NCBI GenBank assembly: GCA_000165345.1
Contig: CM000434.1
Location: 480,001 to 544,000 of the forward strand
DNA: 64,000 bases
Direction: 5' to 3'
Positions 13,667-41,128 of the stretch are shown here, one piece after another. Both the position numbers and the translations under genes were made by a program. Under the pieces are notes generated by a model. The model saw only the letters and a list, made by a program, of their open reading frames with translations. It did not search any database and had not been told where the DNA came from. How positions within the stretch are numbered: the stretch's first letter is position 1; every line of letters starts with the position of its first letter.

Positions 13667-13979
13667 TTTGAAACTAACATTTATAAATAACTTAAAAGAA
13701 AAAAATTAAATCCTCCCGCCAAATCAAATTTCTGTCTAATTGATTTTTTTTCTTAGATCAACTCAAAAACGATCAAAATAAGAATATGCTAAAAATCTAA
13801 GAACGTTAGATACAATACCATCTTTTAGTTGTATTTTAATAAAATTTTAACATTTTTTAATAGAATAGATTTTAGAAATTATTAATCCTCTTAAGTATGA
13901 AATAAGAAACACATTGAATATATGAAACCCTTTTCTATGTAAGAAAGCGACTTGGCAAACGAAACTCGGAGTTGTAGAG

Positions 13980-14053
13980 GTGGGATGGCCGAGCGGTCTA
14001 AGGCGCTAGTTCGAGGTGCTAGTTTTCGCGGGTTCGAATCCCGTTCCCATCAC
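13980..14053 (+). tRNA. 74-nt tRNA gene, class I length, identity uncertain (anticodon loop UCGAGGU, apparent anticodon GAG)
   Basis: GGTGGGA/TCCCATC 7-bp acceptor stem. A box TGGCCGAGCGG and B box GGTTCGAATCC. T arm GCGGG-TTCGAAT-CCCGT. D arm GCCGAGCGGTCTAAGGC resembles Leu-type tRNAs. Anticodon stem CTAGT/GCTAG. 5-nt variable loop TTTTC. No encoded CCA. Discriminator A, followed by a T5 run. Confidence 0.7.
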
Positions 14054-19062: not shown

Positions 19063-19427
19063 AATAAAAGAAAAAACTATTTAATGAAATTGACCTAATA
19101 ATTAAATTAGGGCAGATATTCAAATAGTAATTGAAATTATTAGGTAAAAAATTGTTGATTGAGGAAAAACAATAATTCGAGGATACACCTAACGCATATA
19201 CGATACAATTTACACAAATTCGTGAGTGCTCATATTAGAGTTTAATCTAAATTGTTTTAAAGAAACATATGATAATAAACTATCGCTTTGCAATAAATTA
19301 AAATATTGAACTTTCGTTGGAATGTGTTTTTTCAATAATTTTTGATCGGATTGTAAATTTATTGGATAAAACCAATCAATTTTTTGGGCGCAATTTTCAG
19401 AGATGGATTACATTAACATTAAATATT
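19063..19427. promoter_or_regulatory. Head-to-head intergenic region shared by COWP1 (-) and the giant hypothetical gene (+); presumed bidirectional promoter region
   Basis: About 250-365 bp AT-rich spacer between the COWP1 ATG (19062) and the first ATG of the + strand ORF (19428). No specific motif could be assigned by eye. Confidence 0.3.
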
Positions 19428-22400: not shown

Positions 22401-24365
22401 ACTGAAAGATTAACGAAACTTGATTTATTAAATATTAACAAGATTTCTTTATTTTCGGCAATGGAGGTATTTTCTATATATATTCAAACAAAATTTATCG
22501 ATAATGAAAATGAGATAGGCTGGATATTTTATGCTTTTCCTAAACTATATCAAGCATTCGTATTGATAGATCTCTATATTTGTTTTGGAAATAAAAATTC
22601 CTCAAATTTATTTGAAGATATAGCGAAGGCTAGAGATATGATAGAACAGTACACCAGTAATTTAAATATTAAATACAAGTCAGTGGTTCAAACTACTTTA
22701 GACAGACTTTTTATATTTTATCAGTCTTCCAGCACAATTTCTTTAACAAGATATATAATGGAGATAGATACATTACCAAATCAAAGTTCTCAGATAAAAA
22801 CTCATTTAAGCAGAATTCATGATAGAAAATTAATAACTACAACGTTAACTCAGTCATTAAATTATTTATCTGGCTTTTCTTTAATTAAACCACAAGACGA
22901 AAGTTTAATTAATATTAATCAAATTTTGGAACAAAGTTTATTTTCAAATTTTAATAACTCTAGCTATCTATTTTCAGTAATTCATTATATAAAGTCTATC
23001 ATTTCAGAGTTATTTTTAAATCTGGATAAGCACAAAGCATTTCCAATTTTAGCATTGACTCCAAATGAAATAATTTCCTACTCTTTCTTTGAAAGAAAGT
23101 TAAAAGGAGGTAGTAAGAGACTTTCGAGAATAATGAACGCAGACTTGATCTCTGTTATAATTAAAGCTCTTAATTGTTTTCATTGCTCAACATCAATGTT
23201 CAGGAACAGTGAAATTAGCTCACATAGTGATATGGAATTTCTAATTAAACAGCTTGATCCATTTAAGGGAACATTTGCAATGTTGTCCCACAATATTTTA
23301 CAGTCTAAAGATGTACAATATAGCTATTTTATATGGAAATTCGCCGTCAAGAATCGAATAAACTTTAGTCTTGAAAAAAAACAAATTATTCTAATTTCAT
23401 TGGAATACCGTATCTGGAAATACGATATACATAAGCAGCTTGAATCTAAAATATTTAATGCCAATATAGATAAGTTATCTGGATTCTTTACATCTAAATC
23501 TTTGGAATACTATAATTATTTATTAAAGTGGCTATCGATAATAATTACATTTTTTTCTCTAAATTGTAATGATTTACATCTTATAATGAATAAATTTGAT
23601 AAAACTATTGGTTTAATTAATTATTTATTCCCAATTTATTCTATTAGTCGTACTAATACTGTTGACAAAATTTTGTTTCAGTTATCCAGAGAAATGTTGA
23701 GAAATCAAAATATAATCAACCTACATTTGAATAATTTTAAACGAATAATAAAATTAAATAATCCATATTATCTTTATAGGTTAATAACTAGAGCTCAGGG
23801 AATATCAGATCCATATTTTATTTTGTCAATCATTGAAGTTACTAGCAAAAGTATAAAAAATAGCTATTCTGGAATTAAAAATTCTAAATCAAATAATTTC
23901 AAAAGTAAATTTATTGAAGAAAATATCTATGTAATTTTAAATGTCCAAAGGCTATTTTGTATTTCATATATTAAACATTTTAAAAATAATAGCGATATAT
24001 GGAATGAGTGGTTCATTTTGATTAAAAAGTGGGAAACAACGAAAGGTATAATATCAATGTTGAAATACTCAATAGAAATGAAGATGTTCAGTATAGCAAA
24101 AATTATATCTCAACAATTGCTATTTAAAGTTATAAAGCATTGTGGGGATGTTCAATATACAGAAAAAGAATTGAAACATTTTTTTTCTGGGGATAACTTT
24201 TTTGAAGAAATAGGAAAAGATAATAATTTCAATAATTTTTCTTTAGTTTCAATTGTCAATTATATTATTACAAATATTAGAGATGACAAATTTTTCAGAA
24301 ATATAACTTTATTAAATTATCTAAAGCTGTTGTTTCAAAATGGATTGGTAGTTTCGAAAGTATAA
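19428..24365 (+). CDS. Giant hypothetical protein, part 1 (about 1645 aa from the first ATG); probably continuous with the next ORF
   Basis: Uninterrupted 5-kb ORF with low-complexity Asn/Ile/Lys-rich composition. ORF-track start 19317 is a TTG; first in-frame ATG is 19428. No recognisable catalytic motifs. Confidence 0.5.
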   Translation: MNTDILESRNNRRPRYVSISLNNDELTHFCPFLSDNDEKVLFTLTCNYLSLGQFELARSSILQLSSLNFRKVSELLYSIIYYGPPPDWQLSVTISTSAHFILACIREYESFFRNNTKIENYIIKRTEFDLLIGQMIADISDVKISFEIIKKLRNFYSVFLINGLDVKVPELKILPKIVGLPSYLSRLPSFSTNLNKLSENLLIDLANNQGKYLSIKIINEMFECFNTSRRYFIKIAKILIMDHSNTLKFETSLIKDNSILKNTLSSINVSLNWIGLKNCIIDLIFFKENCGIISLNSLGDMISKNISIIKLEDIFENHDLELTNFTYEKDVSSKNNFTKNKKPEDVISIVFMIFCIINLFCKYKLNKEIFLKFLADQIEILKSCEDICNTCIFDSRIISNVKSLFSENLLKQLSNFQSIHQYLNDINTVKFFENDTYSDHIGTLVNSNSDQNLLFKIVLEFDNILFNINFGISNSLGIFSLPRYIENKNKVTLNPILTYDFSINCKFDEKPFFWCEYLRYLNLSRNKFEELPIIFITNLFDKIYKTKRNINSFESANKIILCFPHLRAICVHLGMKNDPIFNWELLKNIWLPFRLISKNEESLVESKSLELDLDEISRRHAISMFISEELNSNFCSEFRYSSNKNIRKIFEEITLKKSIINYYFDNFNSSKKYTTINWVSLEAFISNIISLPLTIGSDISLLTKERDCIKSYLIQKEVFETIDGKGSSSFGLNLQNTSIEIGNIQTEYFHNELMYCFFCRIFIYLKKIKINNSIIHTKNKKLFNITQLLYYLFIWSDRLSRNFQIEMLPVIEKTFEKTILMIELILFSFPFNIPNLPLPKNLEIFSWWYRFILSTPSRVFNTGKTIIRSSKSSEYFQNLFKVRWVIRGIYENNPWYSNLFSFESFCVLNYYNNSTRNNYSEILLFPSILILKLLSIQNYEKSIELILSSKFHVNITLIVLDGFIFHSLFEEEVINNYCNINKIYGIIKNAKTERLTKLDLLNINKISLFSAMEVFSIYIQTKFIDNENEIGWIFYAFPKLYQAFVLIDLYICFGNKNSSNLFEDIAKARDMIEQYTSNLNIKYKSVVQTTLDRLFIFYQSSSTISLTRYIMEIDTLPNQSSQIKTHLSRIHDRKLITTTLTQSLNYLSGFSLIKPQDESLININQILEQSLFSNFNNSSYLFSVIHYIKSIISELFLNLDKHKAFPILALTPNEIISYSFFERKLKGGSKRLSRIMNADLISVIIKALNCFHCSTSMFRNSEISSHSDMEFLIKQLDPFKGTFAMLSHNILQSKDVQYSYFIWKFAVKNRINFSLEKKQIILISLEYRIWKYDIHKQLESKIFNANIDKLSGFFTSKSLEYYNYLLKWLSIIITFFSLNCNDLHLIMNKFDKTIGLINYLFPIYSISRTNTVDKILFQLSREMLRNQNIINLHLNNFKRIIKLNNPYYLYRLITRAQGISDPYFILSIIEVTSKSIKNSYSGIKNSKSNNFKSKFIEENIYVILNVQRLFCISYIKHFKNNSDIWNEWFILIKKWETTKGIISMLKYSIEMKMFSIAKIISQQLLFKVIKHCGDVQYTEKELKHFFSGDNFFEEIGKDNNFNNFSLVSIVNYIITNIRDDKFFRNITLLNYLKLLFQNGLVVSKV

Positions 24366-24412: not shown

Positions 24413-27409
24413 TTGGATGCCTATATTAATTCACAGAACTCTTCATTAGATGCCAATCGTATCAATATATTAAAGACTATACTGACTTCCATAAAATTGG
24501 TAAAAGACCTTAGGATGAGTAATATTCAAGCGTCCAATTTATTTTCTCCATATTTAATTATTAGGATGGCAATTATGTCAAGGAATAGTAGATTGATTGA
24601 AATATTAAAGAGAGATATTGATATTTTTCTAAAATCCGGGGATGTTTTATTAAATTTAATTGAAGAGTCATTTGGAATTATTGACGATAAACAGATACTA
24701 AAGGAAAAGATAAAAAAATCTTATATTTTTGGGCAAGCTGACATAAATTCGTGTATAAAATTATTTCCAATGATTGAAAATAATATTAAATTATGTTTAA
24801 ATATAGAAGATATTCCATCATACAACAATGATATATATTTTTCTATCAAACTGATTTCTATTATACCTAAAAAAAAAACAATGAGTGATCTTTTATTTAG
24901 TATCTCTAACAAGATATCAAACCAGCTTTACAGAATATTTAGAAATTCTATTTCAGATAATTCATTAATCCGCACAAGGTTTGAATGTAGTAATTCGCAG
25001 CTTTGGGTTGCTGAGGAAGGTTCATTAAAAATAATTCCTAACAGCCTACATCCTTTTTCCAAATTTTCAAAAGCAAAAAGAAACTCGTATTATATCAAAA
25101 ATCGGTGTCTAAATAAATATAAGAGCGGATTAAATATAAATTTAGAAAAGAGTTATAATAATAGAAATGAAATCAACATAGAAAATATTTCAAAATCAAG
25201 AATTTTATTTAGAAATTTATTTGTTTTATTAACTTGGGCAAGCGATTATATTGGGAAAAGCGAATTTAGCAAATCAATTAAAAGCTTAACACATTTATTT
25301 GAAATTTGGCAAAGGAATCCTGCATTATCATTCTCTTTGAAAGATTTTGTGTATATAAGTGATTATGTTATTCTAGTTCTAGTTTTCTCTGACCAAATAA
25401 AGATATTAAAAGATTTGAGTGAAAATAATATTCTTGAAACAAATATGAAGCCTTTAGATAAAAATCATGAACCAAAAAATTTAATTATTTGTAACATAGT
25501 TGCAAATTCAATTACAATTTCAAGAATGAACCAGTATTATAACGGAAAAAGTGACCATTCAAATCCCACTACCCTAAATGCATCTAAATCGAGAAATGAA
25601 ATGATAATGGATATATTTTGCAATAAATGGAAGATTAATAGAGGAAAAGTGACCAATATTGAAATTTTAAAGGGCAACACAGTGAGGATTATTGAAAATC
25701 TTTTACTTCTAAAGCCTGATATCTTGAATTTAAGTATTTTAATAATAATATTAACTTACCATTCATGGGGAAAGCTTCAAATGTATATTAGTGGGCAAAT
25801 AAAACGTATGTTACACTTTCCATGCGCATCAATATTAAATTTTAAATTTTTCAATTCAATATTTGAATTATATGAACAATTATTTATCTCAAATGTTAAA
25901 ATTAGAATGAATGAAATATATACAATTTCAGATTTAGTTTCAAACTGGAAAGATTTTTCTGTTGGAATTGAAAATAATTCAGATTTTTTTGAAAATTCTA
26001 ATGATAATTTGAGTTTGTCATATACCACATTTTTTTTAGAGAGAATAACAAATTCTATTAAAAAAAACTTATTCTTAAAATATAAAAAAGCAATTAAAAT
26101 GATAAAATGCATTCAAGTAAAAAAATTGAACAATATAATAATTTATTTTAACCAAAAAAAAGTGAACAACAAAAAATTCTTTCAACTTGACTTCATTAAT
26201 CACTTATTAATACAAAGTACTCCAAATCACTATTTTTTAATAAATACTTTTGTAAAATTAAATCTATGGTGGGAATTAATGGTTTACATTCTAAGATGGA
26301 GTTTTGAGCTTGGACCTTCCAAATCGAGATCTTTATTAATAGATAAAAGACGTGAAATACGAGCAAACAGTGAAAAAACTTTTGAAGAGATATTTTTTGA
26401 CCTGGTTATAAAAAAAGCTCATTCAAAAGGCCAATTAAATTCTCTGATCAATGCAATGAATGAAGCCGTACCATTGGGAGGCCCAAGAGCCGCTATAGTT
26501 GTGAAAAAGTGCAAAAATGCAATACAAAAATACTTAGAATGTAGTGGGGCTTTGGAAATGTTATATAGATCTTTTCTATCACTTTATATTTCAATTGAGA
26601 TTCCTCACGCACTTATGGGGGCAATAGCAATCCATCTTTCACTTCTAGACCATTTAAATATTGATTCAAGGACTGGATACTTAGAATCAGCTTTGTACCA
26701 TTTCAAAAATGCAAATTTGGTATTGAAAAAAAAAGTTAAGTCAGGAGTAATTAAAAAGAACAAACATGCATCTCCAACAAACTGTATTGACTGCGAAAGA
26801 ACTGCAGAAGTCCCATTTCTTTCTCAAAATTTGAATATTGGGAAATTAAACGACGTACTTATTCCATTTATCGCTGATATTCCAATTTATAAAATTAATA
26901 TTTCTCCTTGGGGTGGTCTTTCATTGCCAATAATACAAAGAATAATCAGATTAGTCGAGCTGCAAAATTCGATTATTAAACTCTTAATAAAAGAAAATTC
27001 ATCAATGTCAATTTTAAGTCCAAATTATAAGGATAGAAGAAATGTTATAGTAGTTCTCTTTCTTATTCGTGAATATCCTCTTGCATTTAAGACTTCTAAC
27101 ATGCTTGAAATACCATTGATGGAAATTTTGGTGCATGCGACTAAAGAACTGATAGTTTCTTATCCAAACAGCAATTCTCTTTATTGTTTTCTGGATTCAA
27201 TGAAACTATGGCTGTCAGAATACGACTCGGATGCACTAATATCAAATGCAATAAATATGTGGATCTCGGAAAAAAAAATAAATCTTAATAATATCCCAGA
27301 ATTAGAAAAAAACAGTATAATGGAACTCGTTAATAGGCTGTCAAACCCTTTGAGCAGAAGCGAAGCATTTAAAATGATAAATCCTTTGGAAAGAGTTAAA
27401 TTAAGTTAA
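24413..27409 (+). CDS. Giant hypothetical protein, part 2 (about 998 aa); likely the C-terminal continuation of 19428-24365
   Basis: Same strand, begins 48 nt after the stop of the previous ORF. Its frame stays open more than 50 nt upstream of that stop and it has no ATG until 24515. This fits one gene broken by a frameshift (assembly indel or real) better than two genes. Alpha-helical C-terminal region; no confident domain call. Confidence 0.45.
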   Translation: MDAYINSQNSSLDANRINILKTILTSIKLVKDLRMSNIQASNLFSPYLIIRMAIMSRNSRLIEILKRDIDIFLKSGDVLLNLIEESFGIIDDKQILKEKIKKSYIFGQADINSCIKLFPMIENNIKLCLNIEDIPSYNNDIYFSIKLISIIPKKKTMSDLLFSISNKISNQLYRIFRNSISDNSLIRTRFECSNSQLWVAEEGSLKIIPNSLHPFSKFSKAKRNSYYIKNRCLNKYKSGLNINLEKSYNNRNEINIENISKSRILFRNLFVLLTWASDYIGKSEFSKSIKSLTHLFEIWQRNPALSFSLKDFVYISDYVILVLVFSDQIKILKDLSENNILETNMKPLDKNHEPKNLIICNIVANSITISRMNQYYNGKSDHSNPTTLNASKSRNEMIMDIFCNKWKINRGKVTNIEILKGNTVRIIENLLLLKPDILNLSILIIILTYHSWGKLQMYISGQIKRMLHFPCASILNFKFFNSIFELYEQLFISNVKIRMNEIYTISDLVSNWKDFSVGIENNSDFFENSNDNLSLSYTTFFLERITNSIKKNLFLKYKKAIKMIKCIQVKKLNNIIIYFNQKKVNNKKFFQLDFINHLLIQSTPNHYFLINTFVKLNLWWELMVYILRWSFELGPSKSRSLLIDKRREIRANSEKTFEEIFFDLVIKKAHSKGQLNSLINAMNEAVPLGGPRAAIVVKKCKNAIQKYLECSGALEMLYRSFLSLYISIEIPHALMGAIAIHLSLLDHLNIDSRTGYLESALYHFKNANLVLKKKVKSGVIKKNKHASPTNCIDCERTAEVPFLSQNLNIGKLNDVLIPFIADIPIYKINISPWGGLSLPIIQRIIRLVELQNSIIKLLIKENSSMSILSPNYKDRRNVIVVLFLIREYPLAFKTSNMLEIPLMEILVHATKELIVSYPNSNSLYCFLDSMKLWLSEYDSDALISNAINMWISEKKINLNNIPELEKNSIMELVNRLSNPLSRSEAFKMINPLERVKLS

Positions 27410-28067: not shown

Positions 28068-28353
28068 TATGTAAAATATAAACAAAATTTACAAAAATGT
28101 GGGTCAAGTTACGGCGGGAATATCGAAACTAAATTTTTAACTCTGGAGATTGAGTATAAAAAAATTTGTTATCCCATTTTCTTCCCTTTACTGGTAAAAC
28201 AGTAATTCCTAAAAAATATTTGGCCTAAAACAATGTATCATAAACATACCTGGTCCATCACTAGATGAAAACCAATAATTATCTCTTTTTGCAATTCTCG
28301 AGCTTTTTCTGATCTCAGAATCGGTTAATAATAATTCAGCCTAATAAATTAGT

Positions 28354-29429
28354 TTAATTTCTCTGAGTCCTTCCAAAACTTACCTTTGAATATAGGGATA
28401 TTAGTGCTGTTTCTACTTTAAGAATTCTATCTCCCATATTCACGACTTTGAATCCCATTGTAATTAAGTCTGTCAATTCTTCTTTTGTCCAACCTCCTTC
28501 AGGTCCAATAGCAAGGATAATTGGTCCAGTGTGGCTTTGTAATCCTATTTCAGTAATCTTGCTGTTGCCTAAGACATCAGCAACAATTCCAATCATGCTT
28601 TCTTTGCAAAAAAAATAATTCCTAATATTGTTAATGTTTAACAAAAAGGAAGTAAAGTTTCTTACCTTAAATGCTGTAGAAAAAATGTCCAAGAAGCATA
28701 AACATAAACATCTGGGCACAATGTTTTTGATGCCTGTTCAAGCCCAAGCTGTACAATTTCATCAATAGACTCTTTTTTTAACTTGGATGAATTTAAATAC
28801 GACTTTTCGGATTTATCAGTACAAACAAAAATTATTCTTCCAACTCCAATTGTAACCGCATTTTGAAGTACTTTCTCAAACACTTTTGGTCTAGGAAGTG
28901 CAATTAATAAGTCGATTAAGGGGTAATCATGTTTATATTCCTCTTTATGAATTTCTGTATCTAACTTAATTGTAACTGCATATTGAAAATTATTTAAATT
29001 ATTGATTTCCGAAATAGATCTTCTGGATCTATTATTTACTTTATTACCTATTTCTTCAATGCTAGATAAGTTAATTATTGATTCTGATTTGGTTATTCCA
29101 TCTTTATTAGTTTCTTTTCTCATTATTTTGGTTACTGTTGCAGTTCCTTTTCCAGAGTTTTTAACTCCAACATTAACTTTTGAGCCAATATTAATTTCCA
29201 GAACTGAGATACAATGATTGGACTGTCTGGAGGATAGCTCAACAGTTAGGTCTTCATTAATATCCTTTTTATCAATAATGATTAAGTTCATTAGAATTGA
29301 TGGAAAAATGACCATTATGGCGGTATGATCTGCATTAAGACTGGATCTTCTCGCATGGTGCATAAGAAAGATACGATCACATAATAAAACTAAGCTAACA
29401 AAAGATTGGGTTTCGTATTGAAAGATCAT
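28354..29429 (-). CDS. RsmE-family RNA methyltransferase (bacterial 16S rRNA m3U1498 methyltransferase-like), 2 exons: 29429..28666 and 28621..28354, 44-nt intron
   Basis: C-terminal motif LAIGPEGGWTKEELTDLITMGFKVVNMGDRILKVETA matches the RsmE signature (E. coli-like ..IGPEGG.S..E......F..V.LG.R.LRTETA). Middle region ALPRPKVFEKVLQNAVTIGVGRIIF and EQASKTLCPDV match RsmE blocks. The two ORF-track fragments (28662-29429 and 28354-28719) are joined by a GTAAG...TATTAG intron with phase preserved (..HL-R-NYFFCKESMIG..). Confidence 0.75.
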
Positions 29430-29874
29430 TTATTTTTTATTTGAAAATGCCTTTATATTTTCAAGATGACTTATTCTCAATAACGAAAGATCAAAAAAAA
29501 TATATTAACATCAAAAGGTATACTTTAAAATCAATCATTTTTTTTTAAATAACTTTTTTAGTCTGATAAGAACAACCTTTACTTTTGTTTACAGTATTTT
29601 TATTTTTACTACTGCAGTTTTAGTCTTAAATAAATATTATTCATTTCCTGGAATTGTTGCAATTGGTAAGTTAATAATAATATATTAAGCAATTTCAACT
29701 TCGTATCCTAAGTATTTAACAGTGGAATTTTTTTTTTCTTATATATAATTATTGAGTGGTTTAATCTTCCAAAATTTTTAAATTGGAATATTTCATATTT
29801 TTTGATTAAAAGAAAACTCTATAAATCATCTACAAGAATTTTTCAAAAAAAAGTCAGCAGACCGTAAGTTTATA

Positions 29875-32800
29875 ATGTTTTTTAGAAAATTATTAATGGT
29901 TTTTAGGTATTTGAAAAACTCGAACCTTAAAAAAAATAAAAATGAACTAGAAGAGTGTATTGAGATTGATTGTAAAAGTGGAAGTTCAGAATCGTTTAAT
30001 GAAACTGGATTATATGACTATGCATTTGATCATTCAATAATTTCTAAAGCTGCTTCAGATGATTGGGTAGCTGCAATACCTCGAATACATAAACAAGTGG
30101 GTTTAAATTTTTCAATTTTAGATTTATCATTTTTAGGTTATGAGCAATGAATTTTATTCAAACAAATTATTTACATTAAAAGGAGTTGAATTGATTCATT
30201 GGGGAATTCATACAGGTTACCCAAGTTTTTCCCAATTATTAAAAAATACATCAGAAATACTTAGTTCATTTATTGAAATGTGTTTTAGGCAAACACAAAC
30301 GCCTGCATATCAAACAGGTAAGGTTTTATTAACTTATTTTGTTAAAATAATATTTTTAGGCCACATTGTAAAATCAATGTTGTGGTCCGGGGTGTATATT
30401 TGGGCAACAACAAAGATGTATCGTAAAAATAATAATGACCCATGGAATTTTAAACGTATTCCGGAGATTTACTATTTTTTTGAATCAACATTTTTGTGGA
30501 TGCTTTCCTATGATTATGTAATTGGTACGCACTAAAATAATTTATATGAAAAGTTGATTTTTGTTTCAGGTTTAATAGCAATATGGTATAGAAAAGAGAG
30601 TACAATACGTTATATTTTCAATTTTTATCAAATTATTGACTTTTTGTCGCTTCCTCCGTTCTTATTGTTTATAATTACAATAAGCCCACAATACGAATCA
30701 AGCCAAAGTTGGTTATTAATGTAAGTTTAGCAATATTTTTTTCAAACTTCAAATATTTGATTAGATTCGGGTGGTTAAGATTTTTAAGACTATTTCGAAC
30801 AGAAAAAGTGTTGGATATGTTATTTCCACATGTTTCTGCAATAAAAAGAAGAGTTATCGGTAAGACATTCTTTCTTTAATGATATTTTTTACTAAAATAA
30901 TTAGGAATTTTTGCTGGTGCGATAACCATCATTTTAACTCATGCTGGTGCAATATTTACGATAGAGTCACCATCGGAAAAAGAATATAATAGTTTGTTTG
31001 ATTATTTGTATTATTCAGTTGTAACAATTGGTACTGTAGGTTATGGCGACTTTTCACCTCGAAAAAGAGAAGGAAGACTAGCTACAATCATTTTGATCAC
31101 CCTGACCTTAGTTTTACTTCCTCATGAATTTCAAAGACTAAAAGAAGCATTAAATACACCACCAGATTCAATTGGATCATTTATTAGGAAAAATGATACA
31201 TATTTGTGTATTATTGGACCAATTCCACCAAAGGTAAGTTAATTATGCTCTTTGCAATATTTTAACACTTTCTTAAAGCAGTTGTTATTTATTACAAAAA
31301 GTCTTTCTCTGCAAAAACAAAGAAGATTCAAATCTATAGTACTTGTGACACCAATACAAATTTTAGAATATCAAAACATAGTTAAAATATCACAACAAAG
31401 AGGTTATATTCGATTAAGTATAAAGCAGGGTTTTTTAGGATCTGCAATCAATAACCTGGTCCAATATAGCTCTATTGTTTTAATTTATGGATCAGAGAAG
31501 CCAATATTACATGATGTTATTTGTAATGAAGGAACGCAAAAAAGTGACTTTGATGCACTGATTACTGTAATGTGTAAGCGATAAAATGAATAATTATGAT
31601 TAATAATATGAATTTTAGGTCTGACTAATTTATTGGGGCTAAAAGATAAATTTTTTCTTATTTTTTATTCATCGCAAGTTGCAAGTTTATCAAAGATAAC
31701 TGGAGTATTAGGGAGCCTATCTTTAGAGAATTTAAGAATTAAATTATTAAGCAAATGTATAAGTAATTGTCCAGGGTTTCTACCAATTATGCTACATCTT
31801 ATTATACCAAAGAATGAAAACATGCTTAAAAAGCTCCAGGAACCACCAAAAAATACATTTTTTACTAGTAATATCGATAGATCAAAAATTACCCCATATG
31901 AATGGAAATGTAGATGGAGGGGACTGCATTTTAAGGTTTATACATTAAGATTTCCAAACTCATTTTTTGGATATCCAATACAAATTTTTACGAAGTATAT
32001 TTATAAACATCTAGGAATATTTTTAATTGGAGTTTATTGCCCTGATACGAATAGAACTTATTTAAACCCTCATCAATATATAATTGGAGATAATTCAAAT
32101 ATTTATTATGAGGGGTCAAATTACCTTGGAATTGTGTTATCTTCCAGTATTTCCCTTGTAAAGAAAGCAGAGTTATTGGAATCACCAAAAAATTACACAG
32201 AAGAATTTATTAAAAAAGTGGGGAGGAGGAGCTGTTCTCCATCTAACGTATTTCTTAATAGAAGTAAAAAATTCAAGTCAAAAGAGTATATTGAAAACAA
32301 AGATCAATTAAATATTTATGATTGTACAATCATATCTGAAATTCATAAGCATTGTGATTCGAATGATACCGATAAAAATATCATAAAAAATTTGATAAAT
32401 ATTAATGAAACTGGGAAAAATATACAAATTACTCAGCATAATCGTGAATTTACAAATTTAATCAATTATTCAAGTTCTTACGATGATCAATGTTTATTTG
32501 ACCAGGTAAAAAATATGGTTCTCCCCAATCACTTTGAAGAAACTGCATCTAATATGACGAATATAAATAGTAAATTTGATATCTGCAAAATCAATTCTAA
32601 TACAGTTAGTTTTTCTCAATCAAATTTAAATTTTCTACCTGAAACAAATACCGGTATTCCAGTAGTTTCAAATTATTTAGAAGCAATTTCAAAAGTTTTT
32701 ACAAATAGAGAATACCCAATTGTGCTGATTATCGGATGGTGCGAACAGATTGATATGCTGGTAAAATTAACCTTTTCACTTAAACCTTCAAATTTTATTG

Positions 32801-33757
32801 TTTTATGTGAAAAAATTATAGATTCCAGTTTTATAAATGAAGAGTTTTTTGGAAGAATTGCCCAAATATCTGGTGTTGGGACATCAGAACATGATTTAAA
32901 ACAAGCCGGAGTATTGGTTGCATCAAGAATAATTATTTTTGATTCAACAGGGAATCCTTCAAATATATATAAAGAAGAACTAATTAACGTTAGATATGGA
33001 AAACATGCCATTGGCACTTGGATAGTAGTATGTTATTTATTCTCCAAATACAAAAAAAAAGATAATTGTTTAGTAGGATCCCAAAAAATGCCACCATTAA
33101 TAATAGATATTAAAGAGACAGACATTGGGTTATTATTATTTCAGTACTCGGATGATTGGCCAACCAGGATCGATGGATCAACTTACTCTATTCCATATAA
33201 GAACGAACTAGATTTTTTTTATTCAAGACAATTTCTTAGTGGACAGTTTTTTGTGGATAATATTATTGACTCATTGATTCCTTTTTTAGTTCCAATATTA
33301 GATAACAATCCTATAAATAAATCATTTATTAATCAAATAATTTATGGAAATCCAACTAGTAAACCATTCGGAAATGTTAGGTATTATAACGAAAAGAACT
33401 GTAGTTTGCAAATGGAAGAGATTCCATTTGTATTTGTGAATTCTACATTTTATAACTTATTTTCAGTAAGTTCGTTTTCGTTTTATAATTATAAATTTAT
33501 TCTTGATTTAACAGCAACTTCTTAAACATGGCAGGCTAGCCATTGGAATTTATAGACCAATTAGAGTGGACGATCATCAATTTAATAAAAAACAAGATAT
33601 AAAAACTCAAAAATTTTCTCCAAGTTTAGGAGATTTAGAGTCAGTTATTAACGAGAATTCGGTAAAAGAATGCTTTAATTGCGAAACTCATTTAATAATA
33701 TCATGCCCACCACCAAAATTCAAAATAAATTTAGGAGATTGTGTTTATTTCTTATAG
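29875..33757 (+). CDS. Slo/BK-type K+ channel (voltage-sensor S4, TVGYGD pore, RCK domains, Slo C-terminal tail); at least 9 exons
   Basis: Exons deduced by eye from GTAAG(T/A/G) donors and T-rich...AG acceptors with phase continuity. Firm exons: 30183..30317, 30360..30524, 30570..30720, 30765..30859, 30905..31233, 31279..31573, 31619..33465, 33515..33757 (introns 42-49 nt). The 5' end (29875..30136?) is uncertain. Motifs: S3/S4 IIDFLSLPPFLLFIIT and WLRFLRLFRTEKVLDML (compare BK VVDFFTVPPVFVSVYL / LRFLRALRLIQFSEILQFL). Pore YSVVTIGTVGYGDFSP. RCK-like YLCIIGPIPPK.. Tail ..RLAIGIYRPIRVDD...CFNCETHLIISCPPPKFKINLGDCVYFL (compare BK LCFGIYRLRD...[21 protein letters not shown]). No poly-Asp calcium bowl seen. 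Confidence 0.8.
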
Positions 33758-33891
33758 AGTATATATCTTAAATATATTTATTAAAATAATGACTTTTATT
33801 TGATTGATTTTTTTTTTTGGTAGATATTTCACCATTATTTGATTGGTGTGTGCACACCAAAGTTAAACTATTTGAAAATAAACAAATCATT

Positions 33892-35412
33892 ATGTGGGGA
33901 TTTATAGAACAATTAAGAACAAAAGCAGGAGGATTTATTGACTTATCCAGTGGAATTATTTGTTGTGCAGCATTTGGAAGTTTATTACTGATATTTCGTA
34001 AGTACATTCCGCATCCATCTGAATTCTTTCCATTTGGTTGGTTTTTTTTAAAATTTGGTATTCATAAGCATGACAATTTTAATTTATTATTGGATATTCT
34101 CGAGGGAGTTGATATTCCTGAAACAGGAAAGTATTCAATAAGAATTAAATGCGGTAGAGAAACTGACGAATCATCTACAACTATTTGCTTGGAAGATGTA
34201 AACAAGTTTACTAATAACCTTACGAAATCATTTAAATGTTGTTGGAAAGAAAAGCGTATTATTCTTGTAAGACAAAGGGAGAACTATTTATTTATTGAAT
34301 TAATCAGTCATGGCACTTTTACCAGTTCTGTAATTGGAGAATGTAGAATTAGCATTATGGATATAATTGATGCAAAGTTTCCAAAAAAAGTAACTTATAA
34401 CATCCAAAAAGACAGGAAGGTTGTTGCGAAACTACTGTTATCTTTTTATAGAATTTCTGCAAACATAATAGTTGAGGATACAAATCCAGTATTATTTCAA
34501 GCAATGATTAATTTACAAACTGATGCAGATATTTCAGGCAATAAATCAATTTATGCAGATTTTGACAAAATGTCGGAAAAAGAACAATTAATATTCTTTT
34601 CTAAAGCATTACAAGGAAATCTATATTACTTAGAAAATGGTGACAAAGGTAAGTTATCACAATTCTTTTTAAACCTTTAACTTTTTTTTTTTAAGATAAA
34701 CTGAGAATGTTTTATTTCAGAGCAGTGGAAGTTACAATTAATAGGTAAGTTAATAAAAAAAATATAAAGCAATTATTAATATTAAACAGGTGGGAGTGGT
34801 GCTATTGGGCAACCGAAGGCGATTATTTAAAAGGAAGTAGTAAATTAGGAGGATATCCATTTCTTGCTATGAGTGTGGTCATTCCAGATAAAACGGATAG
34901 AGATCAAATATACATCAAATATCATGATTTATACGGGATTCATGACCTTTTCTTTAAAGCGATAGAAATTGATAGAGATGTCTGGTCAGAAGCAATATAT
35001 GAATTTATCGAGAGAGTAAGTTAAATTCAGTACTACAAAGACGATTAATAAATATTCTTAGTTAAGATCATATCTGGATCATATAAAGGATGGCGTTATA
35101 AACACCGAACAATTAAACATTCACTTGGAGAACGCTAATTTTTCAAATTCACCCTCGGAACAGCCATTCATTATAAACTTAAACTCAAGAGACGAAAGCC
35201 TAACAAATAATACTCACCACGAAATAACAAGCGAAAAGAAGGACAAACAAGTGACGATGATTGAGTCCAAAGTAAAGAACTCAAGAACAGTAAAAATACA
35301 CACAAACGGGGGTTCAGAAAAGCATTCCAAGAACATCAACTCACCAAATTCTATAAAGAGAATGAAGATGGAAGTAAATCCATCAAGATATGAAAACGAG
35401 CCATTAATATAA
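33892..35412 (+). CDS. Hypothetical protein of about 460-485 aa encoded by 4 exons
   Basis: Exons 33817(TTG)/33892(first ATG)..34648, 34696..34744, 34790..35015, 35062..35412, joined through GTAAGT donors at 34649, 34745, 35016 and AG acceptors with correct phase. This links ORF-track fragments 33817-34680 and 35125-35412. The T9-GGTAG at 33811-33823 could instead be an acceptor for an undiscovered upstream exon. No domain recognised. Confidence 0.45.
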
Positions 35413-35832
35413 ATATTGAGCTACTGGAATCTCGAATCTCAAAGACTCAGAAGAATCAATAGGAATTTCCAATTTGCATCAGTAAATCAGATACTATCTA
35501 GCAATGGAACTTCAATCATCGTCATTGAGAAGAAAATGTTTACATTTTTTGCTCAGACAGGGATAACAATAATACTCAACCATCAAAAATTGATGTCTGT
35601 AGGTGTCCTAAGAAAATCATCATCACAAAATGTAAACTTTAAAGTTTAGGAACTAAAACAAAAGGCATTATAAAAATATACTGCCAGTAGAGAGTTTCTT
35701 GTTCCATCAAATTATAGCAACGTTCTCTTCAATACCGATTAGAGAATATACAATCACTATTGTACACACTAGTTGCAAAGTGATTTTTTACAATAGAACG
35801 AGACAATAAAATTGAGACAACAGTTTGCGCGG

Positions 35833-36795
35833 TTATTTTTTTTTTGCAAATGAAAGCTTGAGTCTGGTCGAATTGTTTAATAGAAAGTTGTCTAGTTTAG
35901 AGATTGTAGTTGCTGCTTGTACTTGAGTGAAAAAGTCTACAAATGCGACTTGATGATTCTTATACAAGTAAATTAAACTATTGAGTAATCTTTAGAAACT
36001 TACTGGTATAAAACGGAGTTCTTTGAATCCATTTATGTGACTAAATAAAGTATACAGTTCTTCTTCTCTACATATCCCCATCTCCATTTGTACAAAAACT
36101 GTATTGCTTACCTCAAGCGGGCTAGCGTTGTTTGGAAGCCTGTGTAGAAACGATGTAGTGCCATCAATTTGCATCTCTGGTCTTCCTAGGGAGTTTTGTG
36201 TAAGCTCATTATTAATAAAGGGATGAACATTCAATTTTTTGTTTTTGTTAGAACGCATGAGGTTCACGTAGTTGTTATCATATAAAACTTGATTGTTAAC
36301 TAGTTTAATCTGGTTTTTTTCAGGATCGTCCAGAGTTTGAAATAAACCATTGTTTTCAGCATTTTTTAACCATTGAGCCAGGTATTGCTTGTATAATTCA
36401 ATGCGAGCATTAATAGACTTTGGTACCATCCGAATGTTGGAACTGGAATTGCGAACTTGGATATTTCTACGTTCTGACTCTTTAGCTGCAAATGAAACAT
36501 TTACGTGCTTCCCAAATATTTGCGTCCCAATTTCATTATTCACAGCATTTACAGCAGAAACAGCGTTAGAAAATGTTATCCATGCCTGACCTTTCCTAAA
36601 ATATGAGTTAAACATTTTAATTGATTCAATCTTGCCATATTTTGCAAAAATCTCTTCAAGTGACAATTTTTGCTTTGGGATAGATATACTGTCATTTAAA
36701 TTGTTAATATAAATAGTTTTGTTTTCATCATCATCAGATAGGCTGTTCTTTAGTACTTTAATACCATTTTTTCTATCCATTAAAGAATTGTTCAT
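35833..36795 (-). CDS. U1 snRNP A / U2 snRNP B'' homolog (two RRMs), 2 exons: 36795..36004 and 35958..35833
   Basis: RRM1 TIYINNLNDSI...FAKYGKIESIKMFNSYFRKGQAWITFSNAVSAVNAVNNE matches U1A TIYINNLNEKI...RGQAFVIFKEVSSATNA. Exon 1 ends at the consensus donor CCA|GTAAGT (36003-35998). Exon 2 after acceptor ..TTGTATAAG| encodes NHQVAFVDFFTQVQAATTISKLDNFLLNNSTRLKLSFAKKK* (U1A: [40 protein letters not shown]). The ORF track shows only exon 1. First ATG is 36795 (track TTG 36804). Confidence 0.8.
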
Positions 36796-36872
36796 TGCAA
36801 ACAAAATACATAAAAATTCAGATTACAAGTTATCTAAGGCGCCAGATGGATTTTTTATTTTAGTTCTTGATA

Positions 36873-37529
36873 ATGAATTACGATGAAATAAGAAGCCTCA
36901 TATTAGATACGGCGGAAGAATATAAGCATTCGCTTGGTAGCGATTATAGGCTAGTGTTGAAAGAAATAAATCAATTAGGTGATATATCTGTGAGCGATAG
37001 TTTTCAAAAGAATAAAGTTGAATTTTCTTTTTCACTTAAGAAGGGTAAAGAGAAATATAAAATTTCTATCTATGTAAATAGAAAATTATTAGAGAGTAAT
37101 GAATCTCTTATCGGTAATAAACATCTAAAAAAATCAGTTGAAATATCTGCGTTGGCTTTCTGGGAATTTTCGGATAAAAAAAAGGAACTTTTTGAATATT
37201 TTACTGAACTTTTTGAAGAGGACGGCATTTCACCATTTAAAAATAGCGAATCCCATGATATATTTTATTCTAACTGTGAAGGTTTGAGGGATGAGCTAAT
37301 TCCTTCCTGCGACATAATATCATTCCTTGACATTTTCTTACTCTCATTATTCAGATCCAAAATACCTCAACTCATTAGACACTTGGGCTGGGATGAGAGT
37401 ATTCCCCTTAGAAATTCACTAATAGAACACATAGCATCCGATGAATGTTTTAAGGACCTAGATGAAAGCAGTACAGACAGTGAGTCTGAGGAGAGTACTG
37501 TGAAAAAAAGAGTAAATAGGAGATACTAA
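36873..37529 (+). CDS. Hypothetical acidic protein of about 218 aa
   Basis: ORF with Ser/Glu/Asp-rich C-terminus (DESSTDSESEEST); first ATG 36873 (track TTG 36867). No domain recognised. Confidence 0.4.
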   Translation: MNYDEIRSLILDTAEEYKHSLGSDYRLVLKEINQLGDISVSDSFQKNKVEFSFSLKKGKEKYKISIYVNRKLLESNESLIGNKHLKKSVEISALAFWEFSDKKKELFEYFTELFEEDGISPFKNSESHDIFYSNCEGLRDELIPSCDIISFLDIFLLSLFRSKIPQLIRHLGWDESIPLRNSLIEHIASDECFKDLDESSTDSESEESTVKKRVNRRY

Positions 37530-37624
37530 AAGTATTAATCTTTAAGGTATAAGTTATTACTATGAACCACTAGGTAAATCTAGTACTAATAAAGTTGAAA
37601 TCGCTGATTAACGCACAACAATTT

Positions 37625-38143
37625 TCAGTTCAAGATAATACCATCATATTTAGACTGGAACCATTGCATAGCTTCATCCTTTGTAACTCTACCGTGCTTA
37701 CCAACCTTTGATCTACATTTCCTTCTTAGGCTAACACGATTACCTGGTCTAGTTAATTGTACGAAGAAGTCCATACCGTAAATACCGGTGCTAGGATCGT
37801 ATTTAATACCCAAATCAATGTGCTCATCTATTCCAAAACCAAAATTACCAGTTGCAGAGAAGTTCCTTTTACGAAGTTCGTATTCCTTAACTTTCAAACC
37901 CTTCTCAAGAATCTCTTCGGCTTTATCACCACGAACAGTAACATAACATGATATCTTTTCAGCCCTACGGATAGAGAATGAACGGATAGTGAAACGAGCC
38001 TGACCAAAGACAGGTTTTTGGTCAGTCAACTGTTCCAATACCTTCGCTGCACGGGTGAGGCGATCACCTGACTGGCCAACACTAATATTAATGACCAACT
38101 TCTCAATTTTGATATTTTTCATAGGGTTCACCTCTGCTGTCAT
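37625..38143 (-). CDS. RPL11: 60S ribosomal protein L11 (uL5)
   Basis: [35 protein letters not shown]...[28 protein letters not shown]... is near-identical in pattern to eukaryotic RPL11. Confidence 0.93.
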
Positions 38144-38403
38144 ATTGAATTATAATTATTTAAATCCTGAACAATAATAACTTAAGGAAGTATTGGATGC
38201 CTGTACAAACTGAAATTAAAAAAACCAGTTCCGTGAACCTTATTTAAACGTCTGTAGACGGTTATTTGTACAAATATAAATTGATATTTTTGAGACAGGT
38301 TTTCGTCTCTCAATAGCGGGCAATTTAGTTGCGCGCTGAATTTTTTTAATATTCATAAAAAAAAATATATAATATAATATATATAAATTACAGCGTGTGA
38401 TAA

Positions 38404-41128
38404 ATGTCAAGCAAGAAGAAAAATGCTAACAAGGTAAGTAGTACTTATATTTATTGTTACGCTAGGAATACTTCTGTTATTTCAGAAACAGGATCAAGAT
38501 CTCGAGGATTTGGATGCACTATTAGCTGAATTTGGAACGGTTGATAATGAAGAGGTAAATCAGGAATTACAAGATCTTAAGGAAGTGAAAGCAGAGGAAA
38601 CTGTATCTTCTCAAACTCTTAAAAACAGGCTTAAGAAACAGAAAAAAAAACAAGCAAAGTCACATGCTCTAGCCACTGAGGATGTTGGTTCGGAAGCCAT
38701 TACAAAACCCAAGCCTATAAGTGCAGCTGCTAAAGCAGCTGCAGAAAGATTGAGGCAGATTCAAGAAAATGAACAGGAATTGAAAAGAAGAGAAGAGGAG
38801 GAGAAAAAGAAGGAAGAAGAGAGGCGGAGGTTGGAAGAAGAAGAAGCATTGCGCATTCAAGAGGAAAAACTTCAAAAACAAAAACAAAGGAAAGAGCGCA
38901 GGGAACAGTTAAAGGCTGAAGGAAAACTCTTGTCTGCTAAGGAAAAGGCTGTAAAACAAAAGCGTGAACAATTTGTTGAATACCTTAAACAGCAGGGCGT
39001 AGTTTCTACAAGTGAAGGTAGTCTTGCCAATTCAAGTTTCAGTAGTGGGCTTGCAACAAGAAAGAAGAAAAATAATAAATCTAATTTAAAGGAAGATATT
39101 CTATCTACGGATATTATAGAAAATAGTGAGAGAAATCAAGATATGGAAACTAAAACGGTTATACAGGAGTTTGTATTAGACTCATGGGAGAAAGCAGTTG
39201 ATTATGAAGCGGGATCAAAAAGTCCGAACGTTTCTACAAAAAATATTAGAGACCTAGTTCCGCCAAAGAAAGTGGACGGCATCGCGGATACAAACTGTAT
39301 TGAACATATTGCAGAGGAATCATGTGAAGACCTGGGGTTTAGATCACCAGTTTGCTGTATTCTAGGCCATGTTGATACTGGAAAAACAAAGCTTCTTGAC
39401 AAAATGAGGAAAACAAATGTTCAGGATAATGAGGCAGGAGGAATAACTCAACAGATTGGTGCAACTTACTTTCCACCTGAAATGCTTTCCGAACAAGTTA
39501 AAAAAGTTGAAGCTGACTTTGAATTGCAAATACCTGGGTTATTATTCATAGATACTCCTGGCCATGAGAGTTTTAATAATTTGAGATCTAGAGGCTCGTC
39601 ATTATGCGATATAGCTGTTCTTGTTGTTGATATTATGCATGGACTTGAACCGCAAACTAGAGAAAGTATTGGATTACTCAGAAGCAGGAAATGCCCTTTT
39701 ATCATTGCTTTGAACAAGATTGACAGACTTTATGGCTGGATTGAGCAGAATTGGTCTTCTTCTAGGTCAACACTTTCTATCCAAAATGAAAGTACAAGAG
39801 ATGAGTTTGACACTCGTCTTAATAGAGTTCTTCTAGAACTTTCTGAGGAAGGTCTTAATTGTGATATATATTGGAAGAATGATGATTTTAGAGGAAATGT
39901 ATCAATTGTACCAACTAGTGCTGTTACTGGAGAAGGAGTGCCTGACTTGATTTATTTAATTGCTCAGCTGACTCAAAATTACATGGGCCTCCATTGTTTG
40001 CAATTGAATACACGTGAATTAAGCTGCACGATTCTTGAGGTAAAGGCTATCGACGGTTTGGGCGTGACAATTGATGTGATTCTTGTATCAGGAATATTAA
40101 GGGAAGGAGATACAATTATTGTTTGCGGTCTTTCTGCTCCAATTGTAACTACAATTAGAGCATTATTGACCCCCCAACCAATGCATGAGATGAGGGTGAA
40201 AGGCGAGTATATACATCATCGTTTTATTAAAGCTTCAATGGGCGTAAAAATATGCGCGAACGGGCTTGATGACGCTGTTGCGGGAACACAGTTACTAGTG
40301 CAATCTAAGAATTCAACTCCAGAGGAGATCGAATCATTGAAAGAGGAAGTTATGAAAGATATGGGAGACATTTTTAGTTCTGTTGATAGGACAGGGAATG
40401 GAGTATATGTAATGGCTTCAACTCTTGGATCCCTAGAAGCTCTATTAGTTTTTCTGAAGTCTTCCAATATTCCAGTTGTTGCTCTAAATATCGGCACTGT
40501 TCATAAGTCTGATGTTAGAAGAGCATCTATTATGCACGAAAGAGGTTTTCCTGAAATGGCAGTTATTCTTGCATTTGACATTAAGGTAGATGCAGAGGCA
40601 GAAGTTGAAGCCAAGAAACTTAATGTAAGAATAATGAAGGCAAATATAATATATCACCTTTGTGATATGTTCACCAAGTATTATAGCGATGTCCAGGAAG
40701 AGAAGAAGAAGGAGAAGTCTCAGAAGGTTGTATTTCCTTGTATATTAAAAATTATTCCTCAATACATTTTTAATGCTAGAGATCCAATTATTTGTGGCGT
40801 TTATGTGGAGGAGGGTATTTTAAAACCAGGAACACCTCTTTGCATTCCCGAGAAAGATAACTTGATGATTGGCCGCGTAACAAGTGTTGAATTTAACAAG
40901 AAACCTGTAAATGAAGGGAAGAAAGGTCAAGAGGTTGCTGTGAAGATTCAGCCTTTTGCATCAGATACAAACATCACATATGGTAGGCACTTTGATCACA
41001 ACGATAAACTAGTTAGTCGTATTACAAGAGATTCCATAGATATTTTGAAACAACATTTTAGAGATGATCTATCTAAAGATGATTGGAAATTAGTTATTCA
41101 GTTGAAGAAAACATTCGGAATTCCTTAA
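38404..41128 (+). CDS. EIF5B: Translation initiation factor eIF5B (IF2 family GTPase), 2 exons: 38404..38433 and 38486..41128
   Basis: G domain GHVDTGKTKLLDKMRKTNVQDNEAGGITQQIGATYFP...DTPGHESF...ALNKIDR. Charged Lys/Glu-rich N-terminal region. 10-codon first exon MSSKKKNANK followed by GTAAGT (38434) ... TTTCAG (38485) with phase 0 into KQDQDLEDLDALLAEFG. Confidence 0.9.

Follow-up and report, generated by a model that had tools for sequence, protein, structure and literature searches.

A 64,000-nucleotide (nt) stretch of the Cryptosporidium parvum genome (positions 480,001 to 544,000 of the forward strand of contig CM000434.1, assembly GCA_000165345.1; hereafter the window, whose own positions are used throughout) contains 19 GT-AG introns in five neighbouring genes, between positions 28,209 and 38,485. 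Eleven lie in the gene for a Slo/BK-like K+ channel, three each in an RsmE-like RNA methyltransferase gene and a CERLI1-like gene, and one each in a U1A/U2B''-like gene and the eIF5B gene. We consider it probable that they are ordinary spliceosomal introns of the U2-type GT-AG class, ancient within the genus and shrunk to a near-minimal size, and that their clustering is nothing out of the ordinary. An initial annotation of the window had proposed genuine, locally dense mini-introns here, and this is borne out, because removal of the GT-AG units restores the open reading frames (ORFs) and the positions are kept across species. The introns were found at the sites that it had listed, but the count is 19 rather than at least 14, and the left end is 28,209 rather than 28,622, about 400 nt further. 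Its numbers of three for the CERLI1-like gene (which it had described as a four-exon hypothetical gene) and one each for the U1A-like and eIF5B genes stand, whereas the single intron in the RsmE-like gene becomes three and the at least eight in the channel become 11. Its labels RsmE-like, Slo/BK-like, U1A-like and eIF5B hold in Pfam and solved-structure matches.

Between positions 27,625 and 48,143 the window is base-for-base the same as CP141123.1 (C. parvum) and CP029785.1 (Cryptosporidium sp. 43IA8). A position in CP141123.1 is obtained by adding 477,394 to the window position, which places the cluster at about 505-516 kb of that sequence. The 1.31-Mb chromosome carries the ribosomal protein L11 gene of the window as an exact match (CP141123.1, GCA_035232765.1; also CP029785.1). 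The same genes are carried by CAD98503.1, which we take to be C. parvum chromosome 6 sequence from 2003, and the window is therefore assigned to C. parvum chromosome 6. It is A+T-rich (24-40% G+C) and dense with long ORFs. Gene models were built by a shortest-path search over GT...AG removals that leave an open frame, and we compared them with public gene calls in span and in product length. For comparison we used sequences of the gastric species C. serpentis (L010) and of two intestinal lineages, C. felis (L011) and a Logan Cryptosporidium contig (L013).

Structure of the Slo/BK-like channel gene

The channel gene and its introns are as follows (aa, amino acids):

29447-33757 (+): Slo/BK-like K+ channel gene, 12 exons, 1,273 aa, our own model
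29518-29561 (+): channel intron 1, 44 nt, phase 2, GTATAC
29666-29712 (+): channel intron 2, 47 nt, phase 1, GTAAGT
29864-29906 (+): channel intron 3, 43 nt, phase 2, GTAAGT
30097-30136 (+): channel intron 4, 40 nt, phase 0, GTGGGT
30318-30359 (+): channel intron 5, 42 nt, phase 1, GTAAGG
30525-30569 (+): channel intron 6, 45 nt, phase 1, GTACGC
30721-30764 (+): channel intron 7, 44 nt, phase 2, GTAAGT
30860-30904 (+): channel intron 8, 45 nt, phase 1, GTAAGA
31234-31278 (+): channel intron 9, 45 nt, phase 0, GTAAGT
31574-31618 (+): channel intron 10, 45 nt, phase 1, GTAAGC
33466-33514 (+): channel intron 11, 49 nt, phase 0, GTAAGT

The minimum-intron path through this gene has 10 introns, to which the in-frame 42-nt intron (channel intron 5) was added. 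The resulting 1,273-aa protein aligns end to end with the annotated 1,317-aa orthologue of C. serpentis. When that protein was mapped exactly on its own DNA, 11 introns of 53-67 nt were obtained, and seven internal exons proved to have the same length in both species (104, 151, 165, 151, 95, 329 and 295 nt), including the 104- and 151-nt exons that flank channel intron 2. At channel intron 4, where C. parvum has GTGGGT, the donors of the three other species are GTGAGT, GTAAAT and GTAAGT.

In the predicted protein, the K+ selectivity filter TIGTVGYGDF is invariant in seven sequences (Ion_trans_2, E=4.7e-13 in Pfam), and BK_channel_a is matched after the pore with 27.8 bits against a cut-off of 26.8. 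For a six-helix transmembrane domain of the voltage-sensor type, Ion_trans scores 24.5 bits on the full model, below its cut-off of 25, and is recorded in the orthologue from C. serpentis; for tandem RCK domains, Slo-like_RCK scores 17.9 bits, below its cut-off of 24, and is recorded for the homologue of Theileria equi. Among the best solved-structure relatives of the channel core are Slo2/KCNT1 and BK channels. The Ion_trans match of the 1,273-aa model is missing from the 1,075-aa public model, which skips exons 7 and 8; exon 8 encodes an S4-like RFLRLFR segment.

Public channel models range from 1,016 to 1,171 aa, besides fusions to the next gene. Those of 1,017, 1,075, 1,100, 1,162 and 1,171 aa were compared by sequence, and the others by length only. 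The 12-exon structure is matched by the C. serpentis annotation only, and by none of the compared models of C. parvum, C. hominis or C. tyzzeri. The current reference, CPATCC_002739 (1,100 aa), starts at 30140 and has seven introns totalling 315 nt, channel intron 5 among them. The 2003 model, CAD98503.1, shares the start codon of our model and removes channel intron 1; its exon 3 is mis-spliced, and exons 7 and 8 are skipped. These two exons are also skipped in the 1,075-, 1,017- and 1,171-aa models. Channel intron 1 and exons 1-4, which encode two hydrophobic and probably membrane-spanning N-terminal segments, are missing from the 1,100-, 1,075- and 1,017-aa models. Channel intron 2 is correctly spliced in no C. 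parvum model that we examined, and some public models start at 29896, inside channel intron 3. The four 5' channel introns, predicted from the comparison with other species, had not been part of the C. parvum intron set. Intron-bearing C. parvum genes had 2-10 exons in the 2015 re-annotation (PMC4637869), and the 12 exons of the channel are therefore at or beyond the known maximum for this species. The channel is the most intron-rich gene that we can document in C. parvum.

Models that fuse the channel with the downstream CERLI1-like gene across 33741-33891 are public for C. meleagridis (1,569 aa) and for one assembly of C. hominis (1,645 aa). To yield the C. meleagridis protein, splicing would have to use a weak GTGTTT donor, which lies 17 nt ahead of the channel stop, and an acceptor at 33823; the bridging frame is open in C. 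parvum. We considered a single fused gene and rejected it, since in C. felis and C. serpentis the bridging frame is closed and the peptide is not conserved; the fusion is probably an annotation artefact.

Conservation of the introns across Cryptosporidium

Position and phase match the C. serpentis gene models in 18 of the 19 introns: besides the 11 of the channel, C. serpentis has two RsmE, three CERLI1-like, one U1A-like and one eIF5B intron at the same junctions and in the same phases. The nineteenth, RsmE intron 3, is conserved among the intestinal species and is plausible but unannotated in C. serpentis. In C. felis the peptides of all 12 channel exons occur in order as separate matches, as do the exons of the four neighbouring genes, and in L013 the RsmE and channel exons are in order with gaps of 40-50 nt between them. 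The three aligned intestinal sequences all keep GT and AG at both ends of each of the 11 channel introns, and the channel introns of C. serpentis are also GT-AG. No presence/absence variation of channel introns was seen among the four Cryptosporidium lineages.

Exons and introns also differ in the way they have diverged. Relative to L013, the closest of the sequences compared, insertions and deletions in exons are 3, 9 or 15 nt long, all multiples of three, whereas those in introns are 1, 2, 3 or 5 nt long. Identity in exons versus introns is 84% versus 72% in L013 and 70% versus 62% in C. felis. Full matches to Methyltrans_RNA, PH_CERLI1 and the RRM, and the match to Ion_trans, are obtained only after the introns are removed. 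These observations bear on the notion that the frame breaks are assembly errors or signs of pseudogene decay. The window does differ by a single-base deletion at about 24,286 from two other assemblies, so that errors or polymorphisms are present in it. However, the segment 27,625-48,143 is identical in two independent assemblies, every break is a GT...AG unit whose position is conserved in four species, and the exons show conservation of the coding type. Assembly identity and cross-species conservation refute the notion, to which we give practically no credence.

Much of this intron set is already in public records. Judged by gene span and product length, the annotation of GCA_035232765.1 (CP141123.1) implies 15 of the 19 introns (RsmE 3, channel 7, CERLI1-like 3, U1A-like 1, eIF5B 1). 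The annotated C. parvum references (CPATCC_002739/002740 and neighbours in CP141123.1) thus represent the same locus and the same introns, and differ in that the four 5' channel introns and exons are absent or mis-spliced. For the IOWA-ATCC re-annotation, which includes the 1,100-aa CPATCC_002739, RNA-seq support is stated for 100% of the introns (PMC8744675). This statement would cover the seven introns of the channel that are annotated there, not the four 5' ones; that it reaches the eight introns of the neighbours is our inference, as we saw their structures only in the GCA_035232765.1 annotation. The feature is real, ordinary and mostly annotated already.

The four neighbouring genes

The genes on either side of the channel and their introns are as follows:

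28129-29429 (-): RsmE-like RNA methyltransferase gene, 4 exons, 390 aa; a public model has the same span
28622-28665 (-): RsmE intron 1, 44 nt, phase 2, GTAAGA...TTAG
28341-28383 (-): RsmE intron 2, 43 nt, phase 0, GTAAGT...TTAG, at the conserved junction YSK/AELLL (slash, intron position)
28209-28249 (-): RsmE intron 3, 41 nt, phase 1, GTATGT...TTAG
33892-35412 (+): CERLI1-like PH-domain gene, 4 exons, 460 aa
34649-34695 (+): CERLI1-like intron 1, 47 nt, phase 1, GTAAGT
34745-34789 (+): CERLI1-like intron 2, 45 nt, phase 2, GTAAGT
35016-35061 (+): CERLI1-like intron 3, 46 nt, phase 0, GTAAGT
35833-36795 (-): U1A/U2B''-like two-RRM gene, 2 exons, 305 aa
35959-36003 (-): U1A-like intron, 45 nt, phase 0, GTAAGT, at the conserved junction LRFIP/NH.VAFVDF
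38404-41128 (+): eIF5B gene, 2 exons, 890 aa, with GTP_EFTU/IF-2 Pfam matches
38434-38485 (+): eIF5B intron, 52 nt, phase 0, after codon 10, GTAAGT

In the RsmE-like gene, the position and phase of intron 1 are the same in C. serpentis, C. felis and L013. The public 390-aa model needs intron 3, as the three introns total 128 nt, and the exon 4 peptide is kept after 46-nt gaps with 96% identity in L013 and 68% in C. felis. The unspliced sequence matches Methyltrans_RNA (Pfam) partially (E=7e-14), and the spliced one over positions 7-162 of 165 (E=2.5e-33). At the site of RsmE intron 3 the C. serpentis sequence (L010 8510-8575, minus strand) reads GTAATT...TTTCAG, and the annotation reads through it; this is probably an unannotated C. 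serpentis intron. The public RsmE-like models start 46 codons before an MNLIII methionine (29292-29429). The C. serpentis model starts at that methionine (residue 47), and the similarity with C. felis and L013 begins there too, so the N-terminal extension may be untranslated.

The spliced CERLI1-like protein matches PH_CERLI1 (Pfam) over positions 2-110 of 111 (E=8e-35), across all three exon junctions. The length of a public model of 451 aa would be explained by an acceptor at 35088, 27 nt downstream, and hence a 73-nt intron (both inferred from lengths). That intron would delete the peptide LRSYLDHIK (35062-35088). Because C. serpentis and C. meleagridis have both kept this peptide, the 460-aa model is the better one, unless both acceptors are used. 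A GTGTGCACAC-like motif precedes the start of the CERLI1-like gene in three species (window about 33845-33860, L011 about 13965 and L010 about 14725) in a spacer that has otherwise diverged, and may be a promoter element.

Among solved structures, the U1A-like protein matches U1-A (E=3e-20) and U2B'' best, and its second RRM crosses the exon junction. The eIF5B intron has counterparts at the same position elsewhere, namely an 81-nt intron in C. serpentis and a 52-nt gap in C. felis.

Sequence and size of the introns

The 19 introns are 40-52 nt long (mean 44.8, median 45) and have a G+C content of 13-29%. All of them are GT-AG introns with a T-rich tract before the AG; 15 start with GTAAG, and 11 (58%) with GTAAGT. 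The T-rich tract and AG are thus as the initial annotation had described them, but its donor range of GTAAG(T/A/G) or GTACGC was too narrow: beside the 11 GTAAGT and four GTAAG[A/C/G] donors, GTAAGC being one of the latter, there is one each of the weaker donors GTATAC, GTGGGT, GTACGC and GTATGT. GTAAGT is reported to start 84% of Cryptosporidium introns, and C. parvum is reported to have no clear branch-point consensus (PMC2483917). In a by-eye look at the 19 introns we found only loose YTNAY-like motifs 8-20 nt before the AG. Recognition presumably occurs via a strong GTAAGT-type donor and the T-rich tract before a YAG or AAG acceptor.

Seven of the introns have a length that is a multiple of three, about one third, as expected. 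Several of these had been thought to be open in frame, but only one, channel intron 5 (30318-30359), is free of in-frame stops; the other six contain them. This intron is the chief candidate for the idea that some introns are regulated or retained and yield alternative isoforms, which could also be read from the disagreement of public models at the junctions (451 or 460 aa for the CERLI1-like protein, and the range of lengths given above for the channel). Its orthologues, however, are 43 nt (L013), 46 nt (C. felis) and 56 nt (C. serpentis) long. It is therefore not a disguised coding segment, and keeping it in those species would shift the frame. The differences between the models follow missed short introns and skipped exons rather than conserved alternatives, and the peptide cut from the 451-aa model is conserved. 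We regard retention as quite unlikely.

Uniform size might also point to an origin from an introner-like mobile or duplicating element. Introner families likewise consist of many similar-sized introns packed in a small region of an intron-poor genome; here the range of 40-52 nt is narrow, and several introns have the extended start GTAAGTTAAT in common. However, this start is only the extended donor consensus. The similarity between the introns is at the level of shuffled sequences (mean pair score 8.53 versus 8.63, maximum 15 versus 15.4). Unlike in introner families, therefore, there is no copy similarity in the interiors; the positions are fixed across the genus without presence/absence variation among four species, and orthologous introns differ in size between lineages. 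The shuffle test effectively refutes an introner or repeat origin, which we hold to be very improbable.

The size range was then considered across the genus. C. parvum introns have a mean length of 87-99 nt genome-wide (87 nt in PMC13125899 Table S1; PMC4637869), and in the annotation of 2004 they had a median of 61 nt (PMC2483917). Those of the cluster thus sit at the short end of the genome-wide lengths. The uniform size had been taken as an oddity of this locus, but the orthologous introns are equally short (40-50 nt) in the two other intestinal lineages, and are 52-81 nt long, with a median of 57.5, in C. serpentis. The narrow size range is best read as a lineage-wide erosion to the minimal spliceable length and not as a property of the locus. 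In this reading, introns of the intestinal lineage would have shrunk close to the smallest length that can be spliced (40-52 nt versus 52-81 nt in C. serpentis).

Similar features are known from reduced genomes such as the Guillardia theta nucleomorph, whose introns are 42-52 nt long, and microsporidia: narrow near-minimal lengths, a very A+T-rich composition, a strong 5' splice-site consensus and an intron-poor genome. The present case differs from these in that it concerns an apicomplexan nuclear genome, with introns throughout the coding regions and not confined to the 5' ends of ribosomal protein genes. It also differs from near-minimal size classes in that only 58% start with GTAAGT and C. 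parvum introns are longer on average genome-wide.

Age and origin of the introns

We take the split between intestinal and gastric species to be the deepest in the genus Cryptosporidium. Because the intron positions are common to both clades, the introns are at least as old as the genus. Positions and phases were thus already settled in the ancestor that intestinal and gastric Cryptosporidium share, and only sequences and lengths have drifted since then. Loss mediated by complementary DNA (cDNA) is thought to have stripped introns from most Cryptosporidium genes. If the channel is weakly expressed or expressed at specific stages, cDNA-mediated loss might have been rare in this gene, which would be the likeliest reason why so many of its introns were kept.

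To look beyond the genus we compared two apicomplexan BK/Slo genes, T. equi BEWA_019650 and a gene on a coccidian-like metagenomic contig. They are homologous to the C. parvum channel and have the same architecture of pore and BK_channel_a (E 1e-62 to 1e-68, core coverage 94-100%). The T. equi gene has one 36-nt intron at an unshared position, and the contig aligns without interruption to residues 227-736 of the C. parvum channel, through the positions of channel introns 6-10. The structure is thus inverted relative to the intron richness of the genomes, with 11 introns in Cryptosporidium, one unshared intron in T. equi and none across introns 6-10 in the contig, while piroplasm and coccidian genomes are far richer in introns overall (PMC13125899 Table S1). 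Outside Cryptosporidium, the channel core has its closest homologue on this GC-rich contig from an ENA metagenome (L012; 4,761 nt, 52% G+C). Tracts of poly-Ala, poly-Gln and poly-Ser are abundant in it, a (TA)n stretch lies between its core ORF and an N-terminal ORF, and it looks like the DNA of an unsampled coccidian. Word-indexed protein searches returned no channel orthologues from Toxoplasma, Plasmodium, gregarines or chromerids.

Coccidia and piroplasms form one clade, which is the sister of Cryptosporidium. Since both outgroups belong to this sister clade, they cannot polarise gain against loss: on the phylogeny as understood, one loss in the common ancestor of coccidia and piroplasms is as parsimonious as one gain in the Cryptosporidium lineage. 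In addition, the outgroup channel homologues are only 27-31% identical, and their orthology is uncertain.

Clustering of the introns

The IOWA-ATCC annotation contains 1,364 coding-sequence introns in 9.12 Mb (PMC13125899 Table S1). At this rate 1.6 introns would be expected in the 10.4 kb that contain the 19 introns, 11 of which are in one gene; in density, the cluster does exceed chance. Intron-bearing genes made up 10.8% of the total in the 2015 annotation (PMC4637869). Their share is about 20% if each has 1.65-1.72 of the 1,364 introns, the average number in two annotations. With five of its 25 genes (20%), the window is about the genome average.

We simulated how often at least five of seven neighbouring genes bear introns. 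With the published fractions (p) the simulations predict 1 to 18 such runs per genome, and the probability of one or more per genome was 0.44 (p = 0.108), 0.92 (p = 0.15) or above 0.99 (p = 0.20). Because a scan of many windows will meet such a run, chance cannot be rejected as the cause of the adjacency. The regional 'hotspot' that the initial annotation had put forward was therefore not upheld: the excess comes mostly from one 12-exon gene, and a five-gene adjacency is expected once or more per genome. In our judgement the apparent hotspot is likely to be one intron-rich gene (11 of the 19 introns) together with four neighbours that have one to three introns each, in an adjacency compatible with chance.

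Several points weigh against this reading. Given five intron-bearing genes among 25, the probability that they fall within seven neighbours is 0.0055, and the probability that the 20 other genes are all intronless is about 0.01 at p = 0.2; these local values leave room, therefore, for a regional effect. Both non-Cryptosporidium homologues that we examined lack these introns, so that their retention from before the origin of the genus would be conjecture. The current reference models of C. parvum do not contain the four 5' channel introns, for which the evidence is comparative only. Finally, low or stage-restricted expression as the reason for the 11 retained introns of the channel stays a guess.

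Some of these points would fit a regional process, in which this segment was shielded from massive intron loss (for instance by low recombination, or by low transcription of a co-regulated block), or in which the 11 channel introns, perhaps with the whole cluster, were gained locally and in a burst by the stem lineage of Cryptosporidium. The grouping of the five genes, the 20 intronless flanking genes and the intron-poor channel homologues of intron-rich relatives speak for this idea. However, it has to be set against the expectation of such a run about once or more per genome by chance, the concentration of 11 of the 19 introns in one gene, which is a property of the gene, the equal parsimony of one loss elsewhere, the unestablished orthology of the outgroup genes, and the facts that the introns share no sequence and are all fixed across the genus. 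We therefore think a regional process improbable, and prefer old, ordinary introns that happen to lie in adjacent genes. If the regional idea were true, the locus would preserve a rare trace of intron dynamics at the regional scale, in a genome that loss has shaped elsewhere.

Other features of the window

In agreement with the initial annotation, the rest of the window is intron-free. In public annotations each of the 20 other genes has a span equal to three times its number of aa plus three; because this is the coding length with a stop codon, all 20 are single-exon genes. A motif-scored scan of both strands gave most of the top ranks to the 19 introns and revealed no further introns outside the cluster, as its best-scoring candidates there were antisense, inside an uninterrupted ORF or intergenic. 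In the upstream frames of the APC1, 2,660-aa, DPH, CERLI1-like and DEAD-box genes we found no link to an upstream coding exon.

The single-base deletion at about 24286 consists of GATGACAAA in the window versus GATGAACAAA in CP029785.1 and CP141123.1. It breaks the 2,660-aa ORF into two (19317-24365 and 24413-27409), and reflects an error of assembly or else a polymorphism between strains. The CP141123.1 annotation likewise divides this gene, though the sequence there equals that of CP029785.1. A tRNA-Leu(GAG) gene lies at 13979-14053 (plus strand), in the spacer between the XRN gene and a 1,623-aa gene.

Some public records name the 460-aa CERLI1-like protein 'snoRNA' (small nucleolar RNA). 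We considered whether the introns encode snoRNAs and rejected this: weak C/D-box matches were intergenic and not intronic, and an Rfam search at gathering thresholds gave one tRNA only. A tandem pair of putative C/D-box snoRNAs (TGATGA...CTGA and GATGAT...TCTGA) lies at 35470-35631 (minus strand), in the spacer between the stop of the CERLI1-like gene at 35412 and that of the U1A-like gene at 35833. Below the Rfam threshold, the pair matches SNORD58 (30.8 bits, E=0.0025), and also snoR64 and snoR38. The corresponding syntenic spacers of C. felis (L011 15621-15741) and C. serpentis (L010 16499-16649) show strong conservation of its box-plus-guide segments.

Implications

The interest of the cluster is chiefly practical. 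It reveals no new mechanism, but it lends itself to testing whether Cryptosporidium lost its introns gene by gene or with a regional component. The locus also provides a clean series of orthologous introns, which are about 45 nt long in the intestinal species examined versus about 57 nt in the gastric species. For the Slo/BK-like channel, a plausible drug target, the 12-exon, 1,273-aa model backed by four species corrects the public models.

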